Of a stretch of DNA of 64,000 bases, positions 50,705-50,828 are shown piece after piece. The notes beneath the pieces were generated by a model. That model did not search any database and was not told the origin of the DNA. It worked only from the letters and a program-made list of their open reading frames with translations. Within the stretch, counting starts at the first letter, position 1, and each line of letters opens with the position of its first letter. The position numbers and the translations under genes were made by a program. Source of the DNA: a virus; IMG/VR virus record IMGVR_UViG_3300016657_000126, positions 88,885 to 152,884 of that record; one strand, written 5' to 3'.

Positions 50705-50739
50705 AAAAACAAAGAGCCGACGGATTGCTCCGTCGGCTC
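50705..50739 (-). terminator. Intrinsic terminator
   Basis: gagccgacgga-ttgc-tccgtcggctc with minus-strand TTTGTTTTT. Confidence 0.85.
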
Positions 50740-50790
50740 CCCACTTAAACTCTTGGCGGCCCCTTCAAGACCGCCTGGAATTTACCGAAA
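50705..50790 (-). ncRNA. Candidate small RNA (hairpin, single-stranded tract, terminator)
   Basis: Upstream TTGACG at 50814-50819, hairpin 50755-50775, terminator 50705-50739, and gapped complementarity to the leaders at 45637-45660 and 37452-37472. Confidence 0.45.
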
Positions 50791-50828
50791 AAGTGGACGC
50801 CGAAAACGCCCACCGTCAACATTTATTT

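Follow-up and report, generated by a model that had tools for sequence, protein, structure and literature searches.

A predicted small antisense RNA in a phage replication module that may dampen translation of an initiator-like gene

The window analysed here is a stretch of 64 kb that forms part of a phage genome of 196,897 nt with ~61% G+C. Its minus strand contains a replication module, in which the genes for SbcD and SbcC are followed after a gap of 157 nt by those for a 158-aa RAMP protein, an SF2 helicase, a 235-aa protein, a DnaB-like helicase, a 579-aa HTH protein, primase, Pol A fused to UDG, an 'FG-repeat' protein and RecA. This gene order is conserved across a dozen relatives with 36-60% G+C. 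The bin holding one homologue of the primase gives a weak hint of a host within the Verrucomicrobiales. The SF2 helicase (window 47934-50189) has a long insertion that is missing in several relatives, and its orthologues match Hom_end_hint, which suggests an intein.

The gap lies between the sbcC/Rad50-like gene (50829-53489, minus strand) upstream and the RAMP gene (50195-50671, minus strand). No Tas-like gene separates these two here, and RAMP is not followed by a gap. Within it we predict a non-coding RNA of 78 nt (50706-50783, minus strand) on the basis of fold, promoter spacing and terminator; it contains no ORF. The predicted fold has a z score of -5.7, with -60 kcal/mol for the minus strand compared with -44 kcal/mol for the plus strand, also far better than shuffles. 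The RNA would end in a strong intrinsic terminator (50706-50739, minus strand), comprising a stem of 13 bp (50739-50714) and a U-rich tail. The end of this terminator overlaps a second TTGAC box that serves the RAMP gene. Searching Rfam with the predicted RNA gave no match at the gathering score, and only sub-threshold matches to hairpins.

A -35-like box TTGACG lies upstream (50819-50814, minus strand), present together with the terminator as the preliminary description had stated, and we assign it to a putative promoter from the spacing of TTGAC boxes in this phage family. In the upstream regions of 109 genes of relatives, 10 of the 19 matches to TTGAC lie 34-39 nt 5' of the start codon, and the same peak occurs in this genome, 35-38 nt before the start codon at five genes. 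Such a spacing implies leaderless mRNAs. A spacing of 36 nt from the box at 50819 would place the +1 position at about 50784-50783, corresponding to the first base of the 5' arm described below, where there is no start codon. The -10-like sequence CACTTT (50795-50790) follows an 18-nt spacer and matches at A2 and T6 only, so that transcription of the RNA is plausible and no firmer than that. The spacer is overlapped by the intrinsic terminator of sbcC, a hairpin with a U tract (50787-50814, minus strand). Downstream, a second promoter TTGACC-16-GAGAAT (50679-50706, minus strand) is predicted to give a leaderless or near-leaderless RAMP mRNA, and is placed in the same way in relatives L020, L031, L040 and L043. 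The segment 50783-50706 thus looks like a discrete small transcription unit, as predicted from its sequence. A second promoter-like class is also found in the genome, where TGCAACG is followed after ~14-16 nt by TGT(C/G)(A/G)TAT, at window positions 29387-29676 and 59795-60062 and genome offset 92639-92980. It is kept in two relatives (L020:540-680 and L035:595-740).

The predicted RNA folds with an inner hairpin (50755-50775, minus strand) flanked by a 5' recognition arm (50777-50783) and a 3' recognition arm (50740-50754). In the predicted fold of the free RNA both arms are buried in a weak outer stem, within which 50746-50743 of the 3' arm is the most accessible part. Kissing antisense RNAs of the CopA and RNAI type use a YUNR U-turn presented in an open loop, with full complementarity in cis. 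An exposed UUGA loop as the main seed is not borne out, because the predicted loop comprises just three nucleotides (GAA) closed by two G-U pairs, and UUGA would be exposed only if these pairs opened. A transient kiss by a UUGA U-turn is possible, but is not the expected seed, and the complementarity here is partial and distant. A G-rich TTTAAG segment lying directly before a GCCGAC-stem terminator elsewhere in the genome (offset -23811 to -23709 from the window start) resembles the 3' half of the candidate; we found no leader to match it.

The RNA is complementary to the leaders of two genes of the module. On re-reading the minus strand from 50782 to 50740 we obtain the sequence given in the preliminary description, and omitting its two bracketed parts yields plus-strand 45637-45660 exactly. 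This is the antisense of positions -27 to -4 relative to the ATG at 45633, and makes the initiator-like gene the main predicted target (45637-45660, minus strand), in a leader of ~52 nt from a TTGACC box at 45720-45715. When the whole hairpin is looped out, the 19/21 match to plus-strand 37452-37472 is also confirmed, and the second predicted target is then -26 to -7 of the 'FG-repeat' gene (37452-37471, minus strand). The match stands, but its target is not purely a leader, as it overlaps the last codons and stop codon of an unannotated basic ORF of 74 codons (37463-37687, minus strand). This ORF would be leaderless from TTGACT at 37722, and L040 has a similar gene of 49 aa in the same place.

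There is a simpler description of both matches. An ungapped 15-mer, the 3' arm at 50754-50740, is complementary to both leaders at 14 of its 15 positions, the mismatches in the pairing being A-C and G-A with none G-U. A 10-mer shared by the RNA locus and the two leaders occurs at these three places only in the 197-kb genome. Beyond the 15-mer there is a match of 5-6 nt in the 5' arm, amounting to 6 bp with -9 to -4 of the initiator leader and 5 bp with that of the second gene. A match of 7-9 nt in the loop is found for the initiator alone, with the top of the hairpin (50768-50762) matching the middle of that target. Apart from the two hairpin arms, almost every base of the RNA has its match in the initiator leader.

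The initiator-like gene (43894-45633, minus strand; 579 aa) lies between those for the DnaB-like helicase and primase, and its function is inferred. The protein has a weak HTH match only (E 0.004). The syntenic gene of L027 matches replication-initiator PHROGs, but without detectable homology to the initiator-like gene. The 'FG-repeat' gene (35310-37445, minus strand) lies between Pol A and RecA, and its product most resembles a gp32-like single-strand DNA-binding protein (SSB) with a long low-complexity tail. Structural comparison with gp32 clusters gave an Atlas score of 0.90 and a TM of 0.50, and the family assignment is carried by 12-17% of members. The SSB has 711 aa here, whereas a different assembly of this phage (P0005, 196,651 nt) gives 591 aa, the difference in the repeat tail being one of strain or assembly.

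How the RNA might pair was examined by computing complexes in the context of the mRNA. The best is a three-way junction, with a predicted ΔΔG of -16.0 kcal/mol for the initiator (ranging from -13 to -16 kcal/mol across computations) and -10.6 for the SSB. In the former, 11 + 3 bp are contributed by the 3' arm and 6 bp by the 5' arm, with the inner hairpin kept. The 3' arm alone gives -12.3. A duplex of all three blocks with the stem melted gives -5.2, that is 11 kcal/mol worse than the junction, and this does not favor the gapped-guide geometry that had been suggested. Pairing of all three blocks with the stem intact would leave no linker, and we judge it to be sterically implausible.

We asked whether the complementarity exceeds that expected by chance. 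With the full RNA against 230 leaders the initiator ranks first (-13.2) and the SSB second (-12.0), with the upstream region of RAMP itself in third place; using longer leader windows the initiator stays first and the SSB moves to third. When the leaders were shuffled the best value was reached in 3/46 cases and the second-best in 0/46, favoring the match. By contrast, shuffled RNAs with the stems held fixed bound the real leaders equally well or better in 17/81 and 100/160 cases (21-63%). Shuffled RNAs bind more freely because the outer stem is often lost; any error in the 100/160 null would favor the candidate, as its pre-filter can miss strong binders. In a k-mer test requiring two leaders, shuffles equalled the candidate in 0/78 for a 15-mer with at most one mismatch and in 4% for a 14-mer, rising to 19% for a 16-mer with two mismatches, 58% for a 13-mer and 90% for an exact 10-mer. 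Free gapped alignment places the candidate at the top genome-wide under one scoring, reached by 2-3 of 25 nulls, while under another scoring 23/23 nulls reach it. Finally, in a hairpin-anchored test, in which nothing but the two arms is deleted from every intergenic hairpin, the candidate comes first among all combinations of 198 stems with 230 leaders, a result reached by 1/51 and 0/41 nulls. The sequence-level tests, the hairpin-anchored and two-target ones included, were devised once the match had been seen. The complementarity is moderately but not decisively above chance, with p ~0.02 for the hairpin-anchored and two-target tests and ~0.1 for gapped alignment, and is not significant for the energies of shuffled RNAs.

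These data leave room for coincidence, which is the most serious alternative, if an unlikely one. Tandem terminators and promoters might simply uncouple sbcC from the RAMP-helicase operon, with a G/U-rich spacer that happens to meet C/A-rich leaders. The energy nulls, the 23/23 result, the dependence of the k-mer result on its parameters and the choice of tests after the fact all point this way. Real intergenic DNA matches leaders more than do shuffles (16 vs 7 for 15-mers), and G/U-rich stretches match easily since the leaders here are generally C/A/U-rich. A terminator tail unrelated to the candidate behaves similarly; the motif TTTTAGCYRTC follows four terminator-like hairpins (window 27757 and 59862; genome offsets -68805 and +90239; also in L035), and its complement covers two gene starts over 13-15 nt (offsets -62062 and -52996). 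Against coincidence stand the values of ~0.02 in the best-designed tests, the fact that both top targets are replication genes, the predicted start at the 5' arm and an analogous element in L040 described below.

Coincidence also draws on the lack of conservation of the RNA. The candidate is absent from all ten relatives that we read, five related viral records contain no match to it, and its alignment to the intergenic DNA of relatives was no better than to shuffles. Pattern scans of viral contigs at the DNA level gave chance matches or none, and some protein-based scans for the locus found nothing. Short likenesses to a hairpin of L040 were rejected (p 0.09). The gap between sbcC and RAMP is 2, 7, 12, 21, 34, 35 and 47 nt in seven relatives, and it is also short in L032 and L033. 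In L020, the closest relative at the locus (RAMP 55%), it is 93 nt; a shorter homologous terminator hairpin and the RAMP promoter are kept there, while the arms and the first promoter are absent. Conservation of the RNA is not seen among the relatives examined.

In most relatives the gene at the initiator position is preceded by a TTGAC box and a long structured leader. Among the readable relatives, L035/L040 alone carries a true orthologue of the initiator-like gene (30% identity, E 2e-26), and in its leader a perfect 16-nt complement to -25 to -10 of the initiator, covering GAGG, lies at the tip of a long hairpin in cis. Hairpin and start-site pairing compete, and the two predicted folds are 7.6 kcal/mol apart. 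The cis-antisense score is 18.3, compared with at most 12.8 in six other relatives tested. This element (L035:14869-15084 = L040:8081-8296) is an imperfect hairpin of ~35 bp without a match in Rfam, and its sequence makes it a candidate switch or long-range pseudoknot. It is an analogy of the target region, and not a homologue of the candidate RNA. Between L035 and L036 there are 65 changes over 9.2 kb and 0 in the leader, numbers that are too small to demonstrate constraint. Leaders of other relatives have features of their own. In L028 (1869-2109) a long hairpin precedes the gene at the initiator position, and a 12-nt apical segment complements bases just 3' of the stem; its GC-rich core is a simple hairpin in L027. 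In L041 (7434-7596) a leaderless ORF of ~45 codons apparently overlaps the start (ATGA) of the gene after DnaB, resembling the leader-peptide coupling of plasmid initiators.

We consider it distinctly unlikely that the three 15-bp sites represent a common DNA motif, or a leader duplicated in inverted form, with no pairing of RNA. In that case the HTH initiator might use them as an operator, or they might be a single-strand site related to the origin, with the copy at 50740-50754 inverted. The genome contains no copies beyond these three, each of which is at a replication gene, and another motif of this genome is present in both orientations. This would nevertheless leave the matches of the 5' arm and loop across the hairpin, and the frame of promoter and terminator, unexplained. 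The motif is not kept in relatives and the SSB copy is partly coding. Moreover, the interruption of the motif by a hairpin of 21 nt would be sensible in a single strand, but not in a site of duplex DNA.

The preliminary description had suggested that the RNA is loaded on the adjacent RAMP. The RAMP is a stand-alone protein with a Cas7-group fold and belongs to a family of 363 clusters. Its predicted structure (pLDDT 95) matches a subunit of type III-B Cmr with Z 11.9 and an rmsd of 2.8 over 148 residues, and Csm3 with Z 11.8, and the glycines of its G-loop are invariant. Such a protein might hold the RNA with the hairpin unfolded, presenting three blocks to mRNA or DNA of the phage's own initiator and SSB genes. 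The blocks spell the target exactly, and the penalty of 11 kcal/mol could be offset by a protein. VIPR provides a precedent for a RAMP with a non-contiguous guide (10.64898/2026.04.26.720920). Yet as a core gene the RAMP has a fixed position between sbcC and the helicase, with no upstream room for an RNA in 7/8 measured relatives. Since most relatives retain it there with no RNA upstream, its proximity to the candidate says little about partnership, and this comparative evidence disfavors the guide. The blocks are of 6, 7 and 11 nt without a repeat period, and a second RAMP-like gene (235 aa, with a G-loop) lies near a 678-nt repeat-rich non-coding tract elsewhere in the genome (G000:C1 26837-28809, ~60 kb before the window). 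We regard the guide as very improbable.

The known VIPR vrRNAs contain 9-16 tandem YNNGG repeats that read dsDNA by NN pairs, and are aimed at competing elements (10.64898/2026.04.26.720920). The locus shares with them a lone phage RAMP beside a short non-coding segment and a non-contiguous match to the target. It differs in lacking such repeats, and in having long-block matches that lie in its own genome. We took at least four tandem units of YNNGG (or NNNGG, YNNNG, NNNNG) in the adjacent RNA as the mark of VIPR; the candidate has no pair of YNNGG or NNNGG, and at most three NNNNG. There is no Vipr chain among the fold matches listed for the RAMP. In period-5 scans around the RAMPs of relatives the positive control did not stand out, and these are not counted as absence. 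From its sequence the locus is not VIPR. A search of the literature found no description of a RAMP in a replication module.

The least credible reading is that the RAMP-helicase operon is regulated in cis by an attenuator or switch, in which the 3' arm would pair either with the first hairpin or with CCCACTT directly beyond the terminator. Predicted folds contain both of these helices, and the RAMP upstream region ranks third. The terminator stem is disrupted by neither pairing, however, and the RAMP mRNA probably lacks CCCACTT, which is located in the spacer of the gene's own promoter.

We are left with a reading to which we give a probability of about one half, that this is a lineage-specific, protein-independent antisense RNA acting in trans, inserted between sbcC and RAMP as a unit with a promoter and terminator of its own, that would dampen translation of the initiator-like gene and to a lesser extent that of the SSB. 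It is favored because a promoter box at the family-typical distance puts the +1 on the first complementary base, because the top two targets among 230 leaders are both replication genes, and because the cis antisense of L035/L040 covers the same region of the initiator. In this respect the original proposal of a trans-acting RNA on replication genes is partly supported, without its guide, its YUNR loop or its RAMP partner.

In the mechanism that we propose, the partly open G/U-rich 3' arm would seed on the leader of the initiator-like mRNA, which is C/A-rich and unstructured. The weak outer stem would then open, allowing the 5' arm to land on -9 to -4 in a junction that retains the inner hairpin. 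This would mask the site of ribosome loading so that less initiator is made, with the mRNA of the gp32-like SSB as a weaker second target. The net effect would be a brake or timer on phage DNA replication, without participation of the RAMP. We infer transcription, pairing in vivo and repression alike.

There are parallels among known systems. The C4 antisense RNA of phages P1 and P7 is ~77 nt, and two of its segments pair near the ribosome-binding site to block translation of a phage gene; it is processed by RNase P, has three stem-loops, pairs via loops a' and b' and controls an antirepressor (PMC5320573, PMC12197685). The candidate is similar in size and in the predicted pairing of two separate segments near a ribosome-binding site. 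It differs in that its arms flank a single hairpin, in that it would be a primary transcript with a terminator, and in that its predicted targets are replication genes 5 and 13 kb away. The Rfam C4 model gave no match at the gathering score or at E<=5. The RNAI/Inc antisense RNAs of I-complex plasmids limit translation of the initiator; they are cis-encoded, fully complementary and act via a leader peptide (PMC10286972). The candidate too would be a small RNA acting on a replication initiator, and the cis switch of L040 recalls the structured repZ/repA leaders, but it is trans-encoded with partial, split complementarity. In lambda, PreS/LPR1 is Hfq-dependent and activates host dnaN, and OOP is cis-antisense to cII (10.1101/2024.10.31.621285; PMC12197685). 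These are likewise phage sRNA genes with their own promoter and terminator, tied to the control of replication, but have no sequence link to the candidate. By analogy, the candidate most likely works like C4 of P1 or the plasmid Inc RNAs, and belongs to neither family.

If our reading is true, copy control in the style of plasmids would be extended to the phage replisome, with a large phage having its own initiator and SSB throttled in trans. The phage sRNAs described so far are mostly concerned with lysogeny, immunity or the control of host genes. For the uncharacterised but widespread family of phage RAMPs, the candidate RNA provides a concrete and cheap ligand, and were the RAMP to use it as a guide this would be an RNA-guided regulator of replication independent of CRISPR and VIPR. 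The cover in cis of the same start region in L035/L040 suggests that occlusion of the initiator start may be a conserved need, for which the RNA solution is interchangeable.
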